Below are positions 1-21,528 of a stretch of DNA of 46,505 nucleotides, one piece after another (the stretch's first letter is position 1; each line of letters begins with the position of its first letter). Origin of the DNA: a virus (Duplodnaviria > Heunggongvirae > Uroviricota > Caudoviricetes); IMG/VR virus record IMGVR_UViG_2563366802_000006, one strand, 5' to 3'. Under the pieces are notes generated by a model. It made no database searches. It had not been told where the DNA came from and was given only the letters and a program-made list of their open reading frames with translations. A program made the position numbers and the translations under genes.

Positions 1-1019
1 TTACGCCTTCTTTATATCCTCCATAATTCCAGAGTGGGACATATTTGGGACATTATCACCAAAAATGTCGTCTATTTTCCTCGCATGCTCTGTCAAATGA
101 TTAGGCGCAAGGTGAGCATACCTACGAACCATTTCTATGGACTCCCATCCGCCCATTTCCTGAAGCACTGATAATGGGACGCCTGACTGAATCAGCCAGC
201 TTGCCCAGGTGTGTCTGAGGTCATGGAAACGGAAATCTTCAATTCCTGCACGACGACAAGCTGATAGCCATGATGTCTTGCTGTCGATGCGCATCTTCCT
301 GACCGCAGGCGTTGATGTTCCATCTGCTCGCTTAGCCGCCTTGGTATGTACAAACACCCATTTGTGATGCTTGCCTATTTGATCACGCAACACTTTACAG
401 GCGGTATCGTTCAGCGCCACACCAATGGCGCGGTTTGATTTGCTCTCTTCTGGATTCACCCAGGCAACTCGTCGCTGCATGTCGATTTGTTGCCATTCCA
501 GATTTATGATGTTCGACTTTCTCAGACCAGTTGCCAGCGCAAACTTGACGACAGATTTCAGTGGTTCGGGGCACTCATCAATAAGGCGTTTTGCTTCCTC
601 CTTTTCCAGCCATCTGACTCGCTTGTTTCTGACCGCTGGTATCTTGATGACAGGCGCTTTTTCCAGCCACTTCCAGTCGCGTTCTGCAGCACGGAGAATG
701 GCCTTTATCATGGCAAGATGCTTTGCCTTTGTCTGAGTTGATACTGGCTTTGGTTCATAAACAGGCGGTTCTTTACCTTTCCTGATGGCGGCCTGAACTT
801 TCTGTTTCCATATTTCTTTCGTCTTTCTGTTATGCATTCTGCTTACAGCAGAGTAAATCTTTGCCTCCGAGATATCTTTAAGCCTTATACCCTCAAAATG
901 TTCAAGCCAGAACTCAATCCGGCTTTTATCTGAATCGAGAGATTTTTTATCAGCTTTTTCCTCAAGCCATCTTAGGCAGGCCTCTTCAAAAGTGACATCA
1001 GGTAAATCCCCTAGCTTTT

Positions 1020-3600
<2,581 letters not shown>

Positions 3601-3647
3601 TTTTACACCTCAGTTGGACGATGTTGAAATTTGCTGCTTTGAGGCCA

Positions 3648-3866
3648 TCACAGTCCCCATTGTTTGTTCTTAAGTTCGATCTCCTCCTGGCAACTTGCAC
3701 AAGTCCGACAACCCTGAACGACCAGGCGTCTTCGTTCATCTATTGGATCGCCACACTCACAACAATGAGTGGCAGATACAGTCTGGTAGTTCAGACGACG
3801 CATTTTTATTGCTGTGTTGCGCTGTAATTCTTCAATTTCTGATGCTGAATCAATGATGTCTGCCAT
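3648..3866 (-). CDS. TraR/DksA-family C4 zinc-finger protein
   Basis: 72-aa ORF with CxxC...17 aa...CxxC (CCECGDPIDERRRLVVQGCRTCASC), the pattern of phage TraR-like proteins. Confidence 0.7.
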   Translation of the reverse strand: MADIIDSASEIEELQRNTAIKMRRLNYQTVSATHCCECGDPIDERRRLVVQGCRTCASCQEEIELKNKQWGL

Positions 3867-3964
3867 CTTCCATTAATCCCTGAATTGTTGGTTAATACGC
3901 TTGAGGGTGAATGCGAATAATAAAAAAGGAGCCTGTAGCTCCCTGATGATTTTGCTTTTCATGT

Positions 3965-4180
3965 TCATCGTTCCTTAAAGACGCCGTTTAACATGCCGAT
4001 TGCCAGGCTTAAATGAGTCGGTGTGAATCCCATCAGCGTTACCGTTTCGCGGTGCTTCTTCAGTACGCTACGGCAAATGTCATCGACGTTTTTATCCGGA
4101 AACTGCTGTCTGGCTTTTTTGATTTCAGAATTAGCCTGACGGGCAATGCTGCGAAGGGCGTTTTCCTGCTGAGGTGTCAT
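3965..4180 (-). CDS. Small early-region protein (lambda orf61-like)
   Basis: Likely start at MTPQQENALRSIARQ... (ATG at 4180); position and size match the lambda exo-proximal small orfs. Confidence 0.55.
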   Translation of the reverse strand: MTPQQENALRSIARQANSEIKKARQQFPDKNVDDICRSVLKKHRETVTLMGFTPTHLSLAIGMLNGVFKER

Positions 4181-4256
4181 TGAACAAGTCCCATGTCGGC
4201 AAGCATAAGCACACAGAATATGAAGCCCGCTGCCAGAAAAATGCATTCCGTGGTTG

Positions 4257-4448
4257 TCATACCTGGTCTCTCTCATCTGCTTCTGCTTTCGCCACCATCA
4301 TTTCCAGCTTTTGTGAAAGGGATGCGGCTAACGTATGAAATTCTTCGTCTGTTTCTACTGGTATTGGCACAAACCTGACTCCAATTTGAGCGAGGCTATG
4401 TGCCATCTCGATACTCGTTCTTAACTCAACGGGAGATGCTTTGTGCAT
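4257..4448 (-). CDS. Small early-region protein (lambda orf63-like)
   Basis: 63-aa ORF immediately beyond orf60a; synteny with lambda. Confidence 0.55.
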   Translation of the reverse strand: MHKASPVELRTSIEMAHSLAQIGVRFVPIPVETDEEFHTLAASLSQKLEMMVAKAEADERDQV

Positions 4449-4609
4449 ACAGCTCCCCGTTTATTATTTATCTCCTCAGCCAGCCGCTGTGCTTTCAGTG
4501 GATTTCTGATAACAGAAAGGCCGGGAAATACCCAGCCTCGCTTTGTAATGGAGTAGACGAAAGTGATCGCGCCTACCCGGATATTATCGTGAGGATGCGT
4601 CATCGCCAT
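4421..4609 (-). CDS. Lambda orf60a-like protein
   Basis: 62-aa [36 protein letters not shown]... overlapping the exo start, as lambda orf60a does. Confidence 0.7.
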
Positions 4610-5280
4610 TGCTCCCCAAATACAAAACCAATTTCAGCCAGTGCCTCGTCCATTTTTTCGATGAACTCCGGCACCATCTCGTCAAAACTCGCCATGTACT
4701 TTTCATCCCGCTCAACCACGACATAATGCAGTCCTTCACGCTTCATACGCGGGTCATAGTTGGCAAAGTACCAGGCATCTTTTCGTGTCACCCACATGCT
4801 GTACTGCACCTGGGCCATGTAAGCCGACTTTATGGCCTCGAAACCACCGAGCCGGAACTTCATGAAATCCCGGGAGGTAAACGGGCATTTCAGCTCAAGG
4901 CCATTGCCGTCACTGCATAAACCATCGGGAGAGCAGGCGGTGCGCATACTTTCGTCGCGATAGATGATCGGGGATTCAGTAACATTCACGCCGGAAGTGA
5001 ATTCAAACAGAGTTCTGGCGTCGTTCTCGTACTGTTTTCCCCATGCCAGCGCCTTAGCATTAACTTCCGGAGCCACACCGGTGCAAACCTCAGCCAGCAG
5101 GGTGTGGAAGTAGGACATTTTCATGTCAGGCCACTTCTTTCCTGAGCGGGGCTTGGCTATCACGTTGTGAGCTTCTGAAGCGGTGATGACGCCGAGCCGT
5201 AATTTGTGCCATGCATCATCCCCCTGTTCGACAGCTCTTACGTCGATCCCGGTACGCTGCAGTATAATGTCCGGTGTCAT
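4600..5280 (-). CDS. exo: Lambda exonuclease (Red-alpha)
   Basis: 226-aa ORF near-identical to lambda Exo ([36 protein letters not shown]...). Confidence 0.97.
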
Positions 5281-6062
5281 GCTGCCACCTTCTGCTCAGT
5301 GGCTTTCTGTTTCAGGAATCCAAGAGCTTTCACTGCTTCGGCCTGTGTCAGTTCTGACGATGCGCGAATGTCGCGGCGAAATATCTGGGAACAGAGCGGC
5401 AATAAGTCGTCATCCCATGTTTTATCCAGGGCGATCAGCAGAGTGTTAATCTCCTGCATGGTTTCATCGTTAACCGGAGTGATGTCGCGTTCCGGCTGAC
5501 GTTCTGCAGTGTATGCAGTATTTTCGACAATGCGCTCGGCTTCATCCTTGTCATAGATACCAGCAAATCCGAAGGCCAGACGGGCACACTGAATCATGGC
5601 TTTATGCCGTAACATCCGTTTGGGATGCGACTGCCACGGTCCGGTGATTTCTCTGCCTTCGCGGGTTTTGAATGGTTCGCGGCGGCATTCATCCATCCAC
5701 TCGGTAACGCAGATCGGATGATTACGGTCCTTGCGGTAAATCCGGCATGTACATGATTCATTGTCCTGCTCAAAGTCCATGCCATCAAACTGCTGGTTTT
5801 CATTGATGATACGGGACCAGCCATCAACGCCCACCACCGGAACGATGCCGTTCTGCTTGTCAGGGAAGGCGTAAATTTCTTTCGTCCACGGATTAAGGCC
5901 GTACTGGTTGGCGACGATCAACAATGCGATGAACTGCGCATCGCTGGCATCACCTTTAAATGCCGTCTGGCGAAGAGTGGTGATCAGTTCCTGTGGGTCG
6001 ACAGAATCCATGCCGACGCGTTCAGCCAGCTTCCCAGCCAGCGTTGCGAGTGCTGTACTCAT
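5277..6062 (-). CDS. bet: Lambda Bet single-strand annealing protein (Red-beta)
   Basis: 261-aa ORF near-identical to lambda Bet; overlaps exo start. Confidence 0.97.
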
Positions 6063-6067
6063 CCGTT

Positions 6068-6484
6068 TTATACCTCTGAATCAATATCAACCTGGTGGTG
6101 AGCAATGGTTTCAACCATGTACCGGATGTGTTCTGCCATGCGCTCCTGAAACTCAACATCGTCATCAAACGCACGGGTAATGGCTTTTTTGCTGGCCCCG
6201 TGGCGTTGTAAATGATCGATGCAGAGTGATTCAAACAGGTGCTGGGGCAGACCTTTTTCCATGTCGTCTGCCAGTTCTGCCTCTTTCTCTTCACGGGCGA
6301 TCTGCTGGTAGTGACGCGTCCAGCTCTGAGCCTCAAGACGATCCTGAATGTAATAAGCGTTCATGGCTGAACTCCTGAAATAGCTGTGAAAATATCGCCC
6401 GCGAAATGCCGGGCTGATTAGGAAAACAGGAAAGGGGGTTAGTGAATGCTTTTGCTTGATCTCAGTTTCAGTATTAATATCCAT
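6068..6484 (-). CDS. gam: Lambda Gam, RecBCD inhibitor
   Basis: 138-aa ORF matching lambda Gam (long form). Confidence 0.95.
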
Positions 6485-6582
6485 TTTTTATAAGCGTCGA
6501 CGGCCTCACGAAACATCTTTTCATCGCCAATAAAAGTGGCGATAGTGAATTTAGTCTGGATAGCCATAAGTGTTTGATCCAT
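6439..6582 (-). CDS. kil: Kil host-killing protein
   Basis: 47-aa [47 protein letters not shown] matches lambda Kil; the ORF-track N-terminal extension to 6708 is not used. Confidence 0.85.
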
Positions 6583-6715
6583 TTTTTGGGACTCCTGGCT
6601 GATTAAGTATGTCGATAAGGCGTTTCCATCCGTCACGTAATTTACGGGTGATTCGTTCAAGTAAAGATTCGGAAGGGCAGCCAGCAACAGGCCACCCTGC
6701 AATGGCATATTGCAT
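6551..6715 (-). CDS. cIII: cIII protease inhibitor
   Basis: Found by hand on the minus strand (below the 60-aa ORF-track cutoff): [54 protein letters not shown], 54 aa, matches lambda cIII. Confidence 0.85.
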   Translation of the reverse strand: MQYAIAGWPVAGCPSESLLERITRKLRDGWKRLIDILNQPGVPKNGSNTYGYPD

Positions 6716-6787
6716 GGTGTGCTCCTTATTTATACATAACGAAAAACGCCTCGAGTGAAGCGTTATTGGTATGCGGTAACGCCGCGC

Positions 6788-17281: not shown

Positions 17282-18364
17282 TTAGAACTGGTAAACCAGA
17301 CCTACAGCAACGATGTCATCAGTATCAATACCAGCTGTTTTGGTAAACTTACTATCGTCAATTAAGTTGATTTTGTAATCAACAAAAGTGGACATGTTTT
17401 TATTAAAGTAGTAAGTAGCACCGACATCGACATACTTGACTAAGTCTCGGTCACCATGAACACCAAGGTCTTTACCTTTTGACTGAAGGTAAGCAACAGA
17501 TGGGCGCAGACCGAAGTCAAACTGATATTGTGCTACTGCTTCAAAGTTTTGTGCTTTGTTTGCAATATGGTTATTACCAAAAACGGTCATATTCTGAGTT
17601 TCAGAATATGTGGTAGCCAGATAGATATTGTTCGCATCATATTTCAGGCCTGCAGCCCATACTTCCGCATTTTTGCCGGAGGCATTGAATTTGCTCTTAC
17701 CATAGGCGACCTGACCGTCAGTGCGATCTGATTTAGCATAGGTTGCACCCACGCCGAATCCTTCATACTCATAAGTAGTGGAGAAACCGAAACCATCACC
17801 ATTGGCTTCAGTTACGTCAGTGCGGTCATTTTTACCCTGATACTGAGCAGCAAAGTTCAGGCCATCGACCAGACCAAAGAAGTCGTTGTTACGATAAGTT
17901 GCAACACCAGTAGTGCGACCAGTCATGAACACATCTGTTTGGGTCCAGGTATCACCACCGAATTCTGGCAGGACGTCAGTCCACGCACCGATGTCGTATG
18001 CTACACCGTAGTTACGGCCGTAATCGATTGAGCCGTAATCACCAAATTTCAGGCCTGCAAATGCAAGACGGGTTTTGTCTTTGGAAGAACCTTGAGATTC
18101 AGCGCGGTTGCCTTTGAATTCATATTCCCACTGACCGAAACCAGTCAGTTGATCGTTGATTTGGGTTTCACCTTTGAAGCCAAGACGGGCATAAGTAGTA
18201 TCACCATCATCTGCATCATTAGAGGAGAAGTAGTGCTTAGCATTAACTTTCCCGTACAGATCCAGCTTGTTACTGTCTTTATTATAAATTTCAGCTGCCT
18301 GAGCAGACATCGCCATCAGTACTGATGCAGCTACAGCAGAAATTGCCACTGTTAATTTTTTCAT
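17282..18364 (-). CDS. nmpC: Outer-membrane porin, OmpC/OmpF/PhoE family (NmpC-like), apparently intact
   Basis: 360-aa ORF with signal peptide [23 protein letters not shown] and C-terminal ...VAVGLVYQF; located between Q and the holin as in DLP12. Confidence 0.93.
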
Positions 18365-18792: not shown

Positions 18793-18826
18793 AAACCCGC
18801 CGTCGAGCGGGTTTTTCCATTTTTTG
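18793..18826 (+). terminator. Rho-independent terminator candidate about 110 bp upstream of the holin gene
   Basis: Hairpin AAACCCGCCGTCGAGCGGGTTT followed by TTCCATTTTTT on the + strand. Confidence 0.5.
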
Positions 18827-18937: not shown

Positions 18938-19153
18938 ATGCAATCCATGGATAAGTTAACAACGGGTGTCGCCTATGGCACCTCAGCAGGTAGTGCCGGG
19001 TACTGGTTTTTACAGCTGCTAGATAAAGTCACGCCCTCACAGTGGGCGGCAATTGGAGTGCTGGGTAGCCTGGTATTTGGCCTGCTGACGTACCTGACAA
19101 ACCTTTATTTCAAGATTAAAGAAGACAAGCGTAAGGCTGCACGGGGAGAGTAA
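18938..19153 (+). CDS. essD: Pinholin (phage 21 S21 family) with dual-start motif
   Basis: 71-aa [74 protein letters not shown]; Met1 and Met4 give the antiholin/holin pair. Confidence 0.92.
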
Positions 19154-19157
19154 TTCA

Positions 19158-19502
19158 ATGACTCAAAACTATGAACTGATTGTGAAAGGGATCCGCAATT
19201 TTGAGAATAAAGTTACGGTAACTTTAGCGTTACGGGACAAAAAACGCTTTGACGGTGAAATTTTTGACCTGGACATCTCGCTGGACCGTGTTGAAGGTGC
19301 CGCGCTGGAGTTTTATGAGGCAGCAGCCAGAAGGAGCATCAGACAGGTCTTCCTGGATGTTGCTGCCGGGTTATGTGAAGGGGATGAGCTGTCGCCGGAA
19401 AAGCGCCCCATAATTTTAGAGGCGCAGAATGTGTGGATAACCTACAAAGGAAAGCTACCGGGAAGAATTACTGGTTCTCTGAAGACTCCGCCGAAATGGT
19501 AA
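19158..19502 (+). CDS. Hypothetical protein between holin and endolysin (position of Qin ydfR, DUF1327)
   Basis: 114-aa ORF starting 5 nt after the holin stop; assignment to the YdfR family is by position only. Confidence 0.5.
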   Translation: MTQNYELIVKGIRNFENKVTVTLALRDKKRFDGEIFDLDISLDRVEGAALEFYEAAARRSIRQVFLDVAAGLCEGDELSPEKRPIILEAQNVWITYKGKLPGRITGSLKTPPKW

Positions 19503-19746
19503 TTTCACCAGCATATTTTTCTTCCAGTAATACCGCCAGCCACTTGAAAGAATTTTGTTGTTGCTGGGACCATTTGGGGTTGAGTGATTCAAGCTGGAGC
19601 GATGCCAGTGTTGGTTGCATTTGTTCCTTGGGAATTGAGAATGCCAGATATGAAAATGCGACAGTAAGGGCATTTACATCATCCCGAAGCCTGGAAATGC
19701 AGTCGAGCAACTCCTGTAGAGAAATGGTGCTATTGTCCATAAACAA
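19468..19746 (-). CDS. Hypothetical small protein (92 aa), convergent with the preceding ORF
   Basis: ORF only; fills the gap before the endolysin; no family recognised. Confidence 0.3.
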   Translation of the reverse strand: MFMDNSTISLQELLDCISRLRDDVNALTVAFSYLAFSIPKEQMQPTLASLQLESLNPKWSQQQQNSFKWLAVLLEEKYAGEITISAESSENQ

Positions 19747-19845
19747 TCCTCTCTATTGTATTTAACTATTCCTTGCCTGATTCAACAGGCCGGGACAGAT
19801 AAACATATCCAGGGTTCAGAAACCGATAAATCCTGATAAATATCC

Positions 19846-20379
19846 ATGAACGCAAAAATCAGATACGGCCTGTCGGCTGCCGTTCTGGCACTGATTGCCG
19901 TCGGTGCGCCTGCGCCTGATATTCTCGACCAGTTTCTGGATGAAAAAGAAGGTAACCACACAACGGCATACCGCGATGGTTCCGGCATCTGGACCATCTG
20001 TCGGGGTGCCACGGTGGTGGATGGAAAACCCGTTTTTCCCGGTATGAAACTGTCGAAGGAAAAATGCGACCAGGTTAACGCCATTGAACGGGATAAGGCG
20101 CTGGCATGGGTGGAGCGCAATATTAAAGTGCCACTGACCGAACCACAGAAAGCGGGTATCGCGTCATTTTGTCCCTATAACATTGGCCCCGGTAAGTGTT
20201 TCCCGTCGACGTTTTATAAGCGGCTGAATGCCGGTGATCGTAAAGGTGCATGCGAGGCGATTCGCTGGTGGATAAAAGATGGTGGGCGCGATTGCCGCAT
20301 ACGTTCAAATAACTGCTATGGACAGGTTATTCGTCGTGACCAGGAAAGCGCATTAGCCTGTTGGGGGATAGATCAGTGA
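19846..20379 (+). CDS. SAR endolysin (T4-lysozyme fold, GH24)
   Basis: N-terminal Gly/Ala-rich signal-anchor-release segment ([17 protein letters not shown]) and catalytic E-8-D-5-T triad ([16 protein letters not shown]); the expected partner of a pinholin. Confidence 0.9.
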
Positions 20380-20834
20380 GCAGAGTCGCCGCGATTATTT
20401 ATGCTCTGGTTATCTGCATCATCGTCTGCCTGTCATGGGCTGTTAATCATTACCGTGATAACGCAATCGCCTACAAAGAGCAGCGCGATAACAAGGCCAG
20501 TGAACTGGAGAAGGCGAACGCCACCATCGCTGACATGCGGAAGCGTCAACGTGATGTAGCAGAACTCGACGCAAGATACACAAAGGAGCTTGCTGATGCT
20601 AACGCGACTATCGAAAGTCTCCGTGCTGATGTTTCTGCTGGGCGTAAGCGCCTGCAAGTCGCCGCCACCTGTGCAAAGTCAACGACCGGAGCCAGCGGCA
20701 TGGGCGATGGAGAAAGCCCAAGACTTACAGCAGATGCTGAACTCAATTATTACCGTCTCCGAAGTGGAATCGACAAGATAACCGCGCAGGTTAACTACCT
20801 GCAGGAATACATCAGGACGCAATGCCTGAAATAA
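20376..20834 (+). CDS. Rz: Rz i-spanin
   Basis: GTG start overlapping the endolysin stop ([29 protein letters not shown]...), matching DLP12 RzpD; N-terminal transmembrane segment and coiled coil. Confidence 0.88.
20590..20781 (+). CDS. Rz1: Rz1 o-spanin lipoprotein, embedded in the +1 frame of Rz
   Basis: Signal peptide with lipobox (LLGVSAC) followed by a proline-rich segment ([13 protein letters not shown]); wholly inside Rz. Exact start uncertain. Confidence 0.7.
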
Positions 20835-20891: not shown

Positions 20892-21039
20892 CATCTGAAT
20901 TTCACAGCGCATCTCACGCGCATATTACATCACCCGAGCCTTTCAGAAAGTTGAGCCTGAGAACTGCCGTATATGGTGGCGACCATCTCGGGGCGGCTTT
21001 TCTGTGAGACAGGCTCACTTTCTAAAAGGTAAAGACGCT

Positions 21040-21528
21040 ATGAACCAATTAGAAGAAAAGCTTCAAAGAATGATTTCCTTATACAAGGAAGATAACTGCC
21101 AAAAAGTTCCTGAAAACATCGCAGAGTTAATGGAATTGGCAAGTGAATTTTCTGGCATGCTTAAGTCGTCAGGTGTTCGGTCAGCGTTCTTTGTTGAAAT
21201 GCTGATGCACGGCGGACTTATGGCAACAATGAGACGTGTAATGGAAGACCAGAGAAAAGAACCTCCTCAGGTATACGTTTTGTCATCGAAGAAAACTGGG
21301 CTAACCAAAATTGGGTATTCATCCAACATTCCACAACGCATCAAATCGCTTGGCAACTCTGGACCAGACTGCTTGAAGCTTGAGTGCCTGATCCCTGGTG
21401 GAAGAGAAACTGAAAACATGCTTCATCGCAAATTTGCCGCAAAGAGAAAGCACGGTGAATGGTTCGCCCTGTCCAAGGATGACATTGAGGGATTGAAATC
21501 TGTAGCGATTACTTCTGATGGCTATTAA
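21040..21528 (+). CDS. T5orf172 / GIY-YIG-like domain protein (moron)
   Basis: Start chosen at ATG 21040 (MNQLEEKL...); C-terminal half has the T5orf172-type pattern VYVLSSKKTGLTKIGYSSNIPQRIKSL...HGEWFALS. Confidence 0.6.
   Translation: MNQLEEKLQRMISLYKEDNCQKVPENIAELMELASEFSGMLKSSGVRSAFFVEMLMHGGLMATMRRVMEDQRKEPPQVYVLSSKKTGLTKIGYSSNIPQRIKSLGNSGPDCLKLECLIPGGRETENMLHRKFAAKRKHGEWFALSKDDIEGLKSVAITSDGY

Follow-up and report, generated by a model that had tools for sequence, protein, structure and literature searches.

The DNA analysed here is IMG/VR record IMGVR_UViG_2563366802_000006, a virus of the class Caudoviricetes; we refer to its whole length of 46,505 nt as the window, and our subject is a pair of small convergent genes within its lysis cassette. 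This cassette holds a pinholin, a lysozyme-family endolysin and an Rz-family spanin in phage-21-type order, with matches to PF04971, PF00959 and PF03245 that all lie above the Pfam cut-offs (Table 1). Between the holin and the endolysin lie two open reading frames (ORFs): ORF1, which starts 4-5 nt past the holin stop on the same strand as the lysis genes, and ORF2, which runs on the opposite strand and overlaps the 3′ end of ORF1. The original prediction, made from the sequence alone, had placed the start of ORF1 5 nt after the holin stop, set the overlap at 35 nt and described an interval of roughly 690 bp, and all of these positions check out: with the holin ending at 19153 and the putative signal-anchor-release (SAR) endolysin starting at 19846, the interval is 692 nt. 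Its remark that phage 21-type cassettes run without gaps was too strong, because ydfR, the gene to whose family ORF1 belongs, sits between holin and endolysin in the Qin prophage of Escherichia coli K-12 as well as in many phage records. Existing annotation covers both of these widespread genes, under the names "YdfR family protein" and "hypothetical protein". We found that ORF2 is a genuine coding gene under purifying selection and that it is most likely a moron-type cargo gene rather than a lysis component. Morons are independently transcribed extra genes in the late operons of lambdoid phages, such as bor and lom of lambda and gene 15 of HK97.

The open frame of ORF2 spans 19468-19746 on the minus strand and yields 92 amino acids (aa) from a TTG codon, the form in which it was first described. 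That prediction was right about the gene and wrong about its start. We place the true start at ATG 19740, giving a protein of 90 aa, because the homologues all begin MDN..., a Shine-Dalgarno sequence lies 7 nt upstream, TTG 19746 is TTA in divergent alleles, and the NCBI pipeline PGAP calls the same coding sequence (RefSeq WP_000370550.1, 90 aa, "hypothetical protein"). A near-identical allele from the BL21 lineage, in the same 90% cluster as ORF2, bears the UniRef name "Ybl58". When compared with the PHROG profiles, residues 3-92 of the 92-aa ORF matched positions 1-90 of the 90 positions of phrog_2411 (E value 1.7e-59), which makes ORF2 a full-length member of a family without annotated function.

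We collected 64 clusters of ORF2 proteins from Escherichia, Shigella and E. albertii, and the full-length members were mostly exactly 90 aa long, down to 70% identity. The frame was open at 90 aa in every divergent allele. Across 21 distinct alleles, the ratio of nonsynonymous to synonymous polymorphism (pN/pS) was 0.42 overall and 0.27 in codons 1-47. Among the six most divergent alleles, the ratio of nonsynonymous to synonymous substitution rates (dN/dS) over codons 1-80 ranged from 0.14 to 0.57, and neutrality was rejected in 11 of the 15 pairs (p < 0.01). The phrog_2411 match, the purifying selection and relatives with as little as 28% identity together show that ORF2 is not a non-conserved chance frame, one of the outcomes that had been named as undoing the prediction. 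A minority of the clusters (P0047, P0050, P0051, P0058-P0060, P0064) are frameshifted into the frame of a 72-aa ORF (19455-19673, minus strand) and have 94-aa products, and others are truncated; these frameshifted alleles and the premature stops in 3 of 88 IMG/VR copies indicate some ongoing gene decay.

The ORF2 protein is acidic (isoelectric point 4.3) and soluble with no hydrophobic span, and neither a transmembrane nor a signal segment was found in its sequence or model. The AlphaFold2 (AF2) model reached a predicted local distance difference test (pLDDT) score of 72, with helices at residues 8-17, 22-35, 38-52 and 59-77 and a disordered tail at residues 81-90 (pLDDT 42). No match to ORF2 or its relatives came from sequence searches of Pfam, NCBIfam, PADLOC and the PDB, fold searches with ORF2 gave generic helical matches only, and in the library searched the literature on Ybl58 and phrog_2411 yielded nothing relevant.

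The disordered tail coincides with the region in which ORF2 overlaps ydfR. In the last ten codons of ORF2 (codons 81-90, 13 variable sites), pN/pS was 1.6 in the ORF2 frame vs 0.22 in the ydfR frame, so that selection in the overlap appears to follow ydfR and the end of ORF2 looks unconstrained. Given this substitution pattern and the disordered model tail, the overlap looks like a by-product of where the ORF2 frame happens to end.

An explanation for this geometry came from comparison with PhiR40_1, a phage with the order holin-ydfR-lysozyme and no ORF2. Homology between the two is continuous up to about 19497 and returns at about 19785, and PhiR40_1 has about 18 nt where the window has 287 bp. 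Many other phage records align with the window in two pieces that skip this same indel. The indel contains codons 1-80 of ORF2, its ribosome-binding site and 44 nt upstream, and it carries no stop codon; as an insertion without a stop codon or terminator of its own, it leaves the ORF2 frame to extend 30 nt into the 3′ end of ydfR. Its GC content is 42.5%, compared with 47.5-52.4% in the flanking genes, a modest difference over a short segment. The only promoter candidate for ORF2 is a sigma-70-like TTGAAT-19-TACAAT arrangement that ends 15 nt before the ATG. Its TACAAT is kept in all E. coli alleles but that of locus L086; the candidate is weak, with an overlong spacer and a leader of only about 10 nt. 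A search of the whole window against Rfam found nothing in the ydfR/ORF2 region. In two independent lineages, an insertion sequence (IS) element lies just 5′ of the ORF2 start, separating ORF2 from the lysis genes further downstream (L094, positions 5345-6514; L090, positions 339-2927), one an IS3-like ISEc52 in sequence type 131 (ST131) and the other an IS66-family element in a Shiga toxin (Stx) prophage. Both insertions spare TACAAT and the ribosome-binding site, and either would cut the late operon before the endolysin.

Table 1. Features of the lysis region of the window and the evidence for each; gene coordinates of ORF2 include the stop codon
Feature	Coordinates	Strand	Basis
Terminator-like hairpin followed by a T-run, 5′ of the holin gene	18793..18814	+	Pattern scan
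S21-type pinholin gene, 71 aa	18938..19153	+	PF04971 Phage_holin_2_1, 2e-35, 121 bits (cut-off 26)
ORF1, ydfR family, 114 aa	19158..19502	+	Pfam DUF1327
YdfR N-terminal domain, beta-beta-beta-alpha, about residues 1-71	19158..19370	+	AF2; identity to K-12 YdfR
YdfR C-terminal module, about residues 72-114 (...ILEAQNVWITYKGKLPGRITGSLKTPPKW)	19371..19499	+	K-12 YdfR lacks the module
ORF2, 90 aa	19468..19740	-	phrog_2411; dN/dS
Convergent 3′ overlap of ydfR and ORF2, 35 nt	19468..19502		pN/pS per frame
Indel, 287 bp, boundaries +/- about 5 nt	19498..19784		Pairwise alignment with PhiR40_1
Shine-Dalgarno sequence GAGAGG, 7 nt 5′ of the ORF2 ATG	19748..19753	-	Sequence; AGGA core kept in all E. coli alleles
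Candidate sigma-70-like promoter, TTGAAT (19785-19780), 19-nt spacer, TACAAT (19760-19755)	19755..19785	-	Relaxed scan
Endolysin gene, 177 aa	19846..20379	+	PF00959 Phage_lysozyme, 1.4e-24; PGAP rrrQ/lysozyme
Rz-type spanin gene	20361..20834	+	PF03245 Phage_lysis, 1.1e-40

The identity of ORF1 was clear. A profile search for DUF1327 (PF07041), the check that had been proposed for this ORF, matched residues 1-112 with 142.8 bits against a cut-off of 25 (E value 4.1e-42); ORF1 also matched phrog_406 and phrog_2091 (1.5e-67), its family name is the one given by PGAP, and we found 322 relatives in the databases. ORF1 had been said to occupy the position of ydfR in Qin, and this was borne out in both family and place: in K-12 MG1655 the order is essQ-ydfR-rrrQ, with ydfR (b1555) between an S21-type holin and a lysozyme, and the order holin-ydfR-lysozyme recurs in many phage records. 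ORF1 and K-12 YdfR are about 85% identical over residues 1-66 and diverge completely beyond. The Qin protein differs in having 103 aa and an unrelated C-terminus, and its gene overlaps the start of rrrQ with its stop and has no converging gene, whereas the window YdfR has 114 aa, ends in the ...GKLPGRITGSLKTPPKW module and is overlapped by ORF2.

The YdfR family is thus modular, with an N-terminal domain and a swappable C-terminus. In the AF2 model of the window protein, residues 1-70 scored pLDDT 62-86 per 10-residue block and the C-terminal module scored below 50. Database members fall into length classes of 103/104, 114, 116 and 176/183 aa. The 114-aa class ends ...KTPPKW and is the one overlapped by ORF2; the 116-aa class ends ...KTPPESQP and occurs without ORF2. 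The 176/183-aa variants (P0099, P0084) are common and bear a coiled-coil-like extension of about 65 aa after ...KTPP (TALRSEKDDIES...EEGKSLQ). With at least three alternative downstream modules after KTPP, the site just past this motif is a recombination junction. We also considered whether ORF2 might be an inverted copy of the 65-aa extension and rejected this, as hhalign gave a probability of 0.2% and BLASTP found nothing.

As for what YdfR does, a region of the K-12 protein spanning residues 1-72 is reported, on two-hybrid and co-purification evidence, to bind RNase E in the N-terminal half that holds its catalytic activity (PMC13232886, RNA Biol 2026). In the same study, K-12 YdfR co-purified with DNase-resistant nucleic acid or RNA, and its overexpression altered few transcripts (PMC13232886). 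By sequence, the N-terminal domain of the window YdfR matches this RNase E-binding region and may share its activity. Apart from this interaction study, our literature search on DUF1327 returned nothing relevant.

To see where the pair occurs, we surveyed genomes and phage records. Over 1 kb, the region matches E. coli strain 3359 at 100% identity, and its identity to Escherichia phage Chlobot is 99.9%. The ORF2 insert was present in 1139 of 5426 complete E. coli genomes (21%) and in only 3 of 50,697 phage records; carriers include ST131 and the Rac prophage of BL21(DE3)-lineage strains (CP083274.1, 2232848-2233120; ORF2 allele WP_000370546.1). In IMG/VR, the ydfR-ORF2-endolysin geometry was identical in all 80 loci examined, and around ORF2 in these loci the holin varied from 80 to 99% identity and Rz from 51 to 100%, which is typical mosaicism. 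The same ORF2 allele was found beside ydfR alleles 73% and 96% identical to that of the window, so that ydfR and ORF2 do not co-vary. In three loci (L084-L086), ydfR is a pseudogene, with its N-terminal part deleted and an in-frame TAG, and ORF2 is intact. In two others (L091, L092), holin-ydfR-ORF2 is followed by a holin_8/holin_3_7/M15-peptidase cassette in place of the SAR endolysin. Most ydfR genes occur without ORF2.

Two of the surveyed contexts carry other accessory genes. In the lineage with the ydfR pseudogene, a pair resembling the ParE toxin and ParD antitoxin lies directly 3′ of the endolysin, where Rz would be expected (L084, positions 1589-2123). In two Stx prophages (L090 and L092, positions 4069-5820), the holin-ydfR-ORF2 block lies directly 3′ of the genes for Shiga toxin subunits A and B and for a PmrD-like protein.

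Relatives of ORF2 beyond these alleles are rare. A hidden Markov model (HMM) search of 1.8 billion representative proteins returned only 18 matches, including relatives of 28-57% identity and 81-97 aa, and the distant relatives share the core ELLD-I--LR--VN-L--AFSYLAFS...TI-AL-FES. Scans for more distant loci gave one Yersinia locus in genomes and none in metagenomes. Several of the relatives are reverse-oriented in phage late operons at places other than the lysis cassette: between tail genes M and L (P0069, P0072), and after tail gene I (P0071 and a copy in a Yersinia massiliensis prophage). One is reverse-oriented near terminase genes (P0067). Three others stand alone in chromosomes: P0065 neighbours an autotransporter gene, P0073 is convergent with a P-type ATPase gene, and P0076 lies between dinI and bssS. 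Reverse orientation at several late-operon sites together with copies outside phages is the signature of moron-type cargo, not of a lysis component. The last of these genes, P0076 (92 aa), is the most distant relative and lies two genes downstream of rne, which encodes RNase E (L105, positions 1-4279); this closeness is probably coincidental, though notable given the reported YdfR-RNase E interaction.

ORF2 resembles the lambdoid morons in several ways: it is present or absent among collinear relatives, is lower in GC, is reversed in a late operon like bor and is very common in prophages. The original prediction had offered a lysis regulator or a cargo module for the pair, and for ORF2 it is the cargo half that is supported, by the lower-GC presence/absence indel, the reverse orientation and the relatives at other late-operon and non-phage sites. 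We therefore favor a reading, to which we assign a probability of about 0.6, in which ydfR serves as an accessory gene expressed late and ORF2 as cargo in reverse orientation, the latter active in the absence of late transcription and silenced once convergent, Q-antiterminated transcription sets in. Judging by position and strand, ydfR would be co-transcribed with the holin, endolysin and spanins from the late promoter, and YdfR is likeliest to be a cytoplasmic late protein that acts on RNA metabolism, not one that attacks the envelope. With ORF2 pointing against the Q-antiterminated late transcript, its expression probably falls in periods without that transcript, during lysogeny or the early stage of infection, a timing read from gene orientation alone. 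During lytic growth, convergent transcription and antisense pairing would shut ORF2 down. Its product, which has no DNA-binding, membrane or enzymatic signature, probably acts by binding another protein.

Several observations weigh against this reading. Classic morons carry their own promoter and terminator. For ORF2, a standard promoter scan found no promoter, and the candidate from the relaxed scan is not convincing; a standard scan likewise found no minus-strand terminator-like site downstream of 19468, and ORF2 ends inside ydfR. In having no clear promoter, no terminator and a 3′ end that overlaps a late gene, ORF2 is unlike the lambdoid morons, as it is in its product, predicted to be cytoplasmic and acidic rather than an envelope protein. 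Clonal lineages inflate the excess of ORF2 in genomes relative to phage records: 618 of the 1140 records fell within the 80-90% identity band, and 16 records sampled from the lower part of this band all carried a single allele of 87.2% identity. The proposed role of YdfR is based on a single study, by two-hybrid and pull-down, in which the allele used had a different C-terminus and its overexpression changed few transcripts. Further, in E. coli ORF2 was found only joined to the 3′ end of ydfR, and several ORF2 relatives have a small late-strand ORF (60-85 aa) that abuts or overlaps their own 3′ end. This attachment, along with the partners elsewhere, could reflect functional coupling instead of independent cargo.

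These partners suggest a different explanation, in which ydfR, or its C-terminal module, and ORF2 form a conserved mobile module of two convergent, overlapping and functionally coupled genes that hops between late operons. Its genes could antagonize each other by convergent transcription or by antisense pairing of the overlapping 3′ ends, or the ORF2 protein could act like an antitoxin or immunity protein and neutralize its partner. Convergent small ORFs do occur beside relatives of 36-55% identity from unrelated phages, among them those at L099, L108 and L109 (junction of tail genes M and L), L104, L107 and L110/L111 (after tail gene I, 47-nt overlap) and L102. Three partners from different positions and lineages are similar to one another (Smith-Waterman shuffle p 0.0005-0.01) and consist of a coiled coil followed by the C-terminal motif (S/T)I(K/Q)G..(Y/F)..(K/Q)I-x-G(D/S)L. 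The pattern IKG-x7/8-I-x-G-D/S-L recurs in YdfR (KGKLPGRITGSLKTPP), and the C-terminal module of the window YdfR (ITYKGKLPGRITGSLKTPPKW) weakly resembles it; this module also scored against one partner (L099_71) with a Smith-Waterman shuffle p of 0.0025, and an hhalign profile comparison of the YdfR C-terminus with partners (A5 vs A8) gave an E value of 2.6e-4 at a probability of 42%. Matches between the HMMs were reciprocal best or near-best. With the YdfR C-terminal HMM, partners ranked 2nd-7th of 940 ORF fragments, and with the partner HMM the ydfR frame ranked first of 723 window fragments, in both cases at non-significant E values of 0.2-0.9. The similarity is therefore weak, and Pfam and PHROG scans of the partner ORFs gave no DUF1327 match; a viral scan with the partner profile gave no new contigs beyond the known loci. 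Three relatives of ORF2 (L097, L098 and L105) have no convergent partner, the frequent ydfR genes without ORF2, the absence of co-variation and the ORF2 genes kept intact beside dead ydfR all count against coupling, and the linkage to the ydfR 3′ end in E. coli is partly forced, because the ORF2 stop codon lies there. PADLOC found nothing for YdfR, ORF2 or three ORF2 relatives, and no toxin-antitoxin or defence model was matched. We regard such a module as the main rival account of the pair, though a rather unlikely one. Taken at their face, the similarities suggest that members of the ORF2 family may often be accompanied by a convergent partner, and that the 114- and 116-aa forms of YdfR may owe their C-terminus to the acquisition of a module of this kind.

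Prophage type I toxin-antitoxin pairs such as txpA/RatA and bsrG/SR4 are convergent, overlap at their 3′ ends and are regulated by antisense or interference. Like them, ydfR and ORF2 are convergent units in a prophage that overlap at their 3′ ends; unlike them, both partners here code for proteins, there is no toxin-like hydrophobic peptide, and neither gene matches a toxin-antitoxin or defence model. A broader conjecture, which we regard as quite improbable, is that the ORF2 family and a small late-strand partner, fused here as the YdfR C-terminal module, constitute an undescribed mobile convergent module in the late operons of enterobacterial siphoviruses, found in the lysis cassette, at the M/L junction and after tail gene I. 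One of its genes would be on in the lysogenic state and the other in the late lytic state, and in the YdfR version the RNase E-binding domain would link this switch to RNA decay or lysis timing.

The position of ORF2, beside the holin and endolysin genes, is the one observation in favor of a lysis-timing regulator of the pinholin/SAR-endolysin pathway, similar to an antiholin or an endolysin inhibitor. This is the half of the earlier suggestion that did not survive for ORF2, and we consider it very improbable: the gene lies on the strand opposite to the late operon and so runs against late transcription, and its product is acidic and soluble, with neither a transmembrane nor a signal segment. 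Moreover, many cassettes of this type, among them cassettes from isolated phages, have no ORF2; the gene persists where ydfR is dead or where the endolysin has been swapped for a different lysis system without a SAR endolysin; and its relatives reside outside lysis cassettes, in tail clusters and at chromosomal sites. Least credible of all is that the minus-strand ORF is itself a by-product and that the functional element is a protein encoded on the plus strand, or else a non-coding or antisense element. The window has an open plus-strand frame at 19433-19765, and an 89-aa ORF in it begins at ATG 19496, which overlaps the ydfR stop (ATGGTAA) in a layout resembling translational coupling; its pN/pS of 0.27 is also below the 0.42 of ORF2. 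This low value is an expected artefact, since this antisense frame and ORF2 have their third codon positions in common. In all three of the most divergent alleles 1-2 stop codons interrupt the plus-strand frame while ORF2 remains open, and alleles with a YdfR ending in ...PPEF lack the ATG. Distant relatives were detected in the ORF2 frame only, the plus-strand product would be rich in Cys and Ser, and Rfam finds nothing here; we rejected this frame as a real gene. We thus return to moron-type cargo as the most likely identity of ORF2.

Among the genes around the pair, the pinholin has the Met1/Met4 dual-start motif (MQSMDK...), also falls into PHROG holin families and is named essD by PGAP. 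Its upstream hairpin may be a late-leader terminator of the tR′ type. The endolysin is predicted to be SAR-like from its weakly hydrophobic, Gly/Ala-rich N-terminus, and an ORF embedded in the Rz gene (20590-20781, lipobox LLGVSAC) probably encodes an Rz1-like lipoprotein.

Upstream of the holin, the window carries a 360-aa porin gene of the OmpC/NmpC type (17282-18364, minus strand), the second reverse-oriented cargo gene of the same late region; we take this NmpC/Lc-type gene to be an example of a moron. In phage Chlobot, it is flanked by the gene for the Q antiterminator on one side and the holin on the other. Strain 3359 has a truncated homologue of this porin beside an IS1-like element, with an IS66-family element separating it from the holin. 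Just 3′ of Rz, the window encodes a GIY-YIG/T5orf172-type protein (21004-21528, plus strand; Pfam MUG113 7e-15, T5orf172 3e-10) with a weak PADLOC match to the candidate defence family PDC-S57 (8e-06). Elsewhere, positions 6670-6728 on the minus strand match the Rfam lambda cIII thermoregulator element (88.5 bits, E value 2e-20), which fits a lambdoid temperate phage.

To the existing annotations our analysis adds evidence for the coding status of ORF2, a revised start codon, defined indel boundaries and the unconstrained overlap, as well as the modular structure of YdfR, the moron-like behavior of the ORF2 family and a tentative recurrent convergent partner. Both genes are very common and reside in well-used strains, ORF2 for instance in the BL21(DE3) lineage and in ST131. 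A real, selected and reverse-oriented ORF2 on a defined indel and a modular YdfR are clean targets for deletion and expression work. If the convergent pairing is functional, it would represent a small, newly recognized module of temperate phages with a regulatory or cargo role; if it is not, ORF2 would be one more uncharacterized moron.

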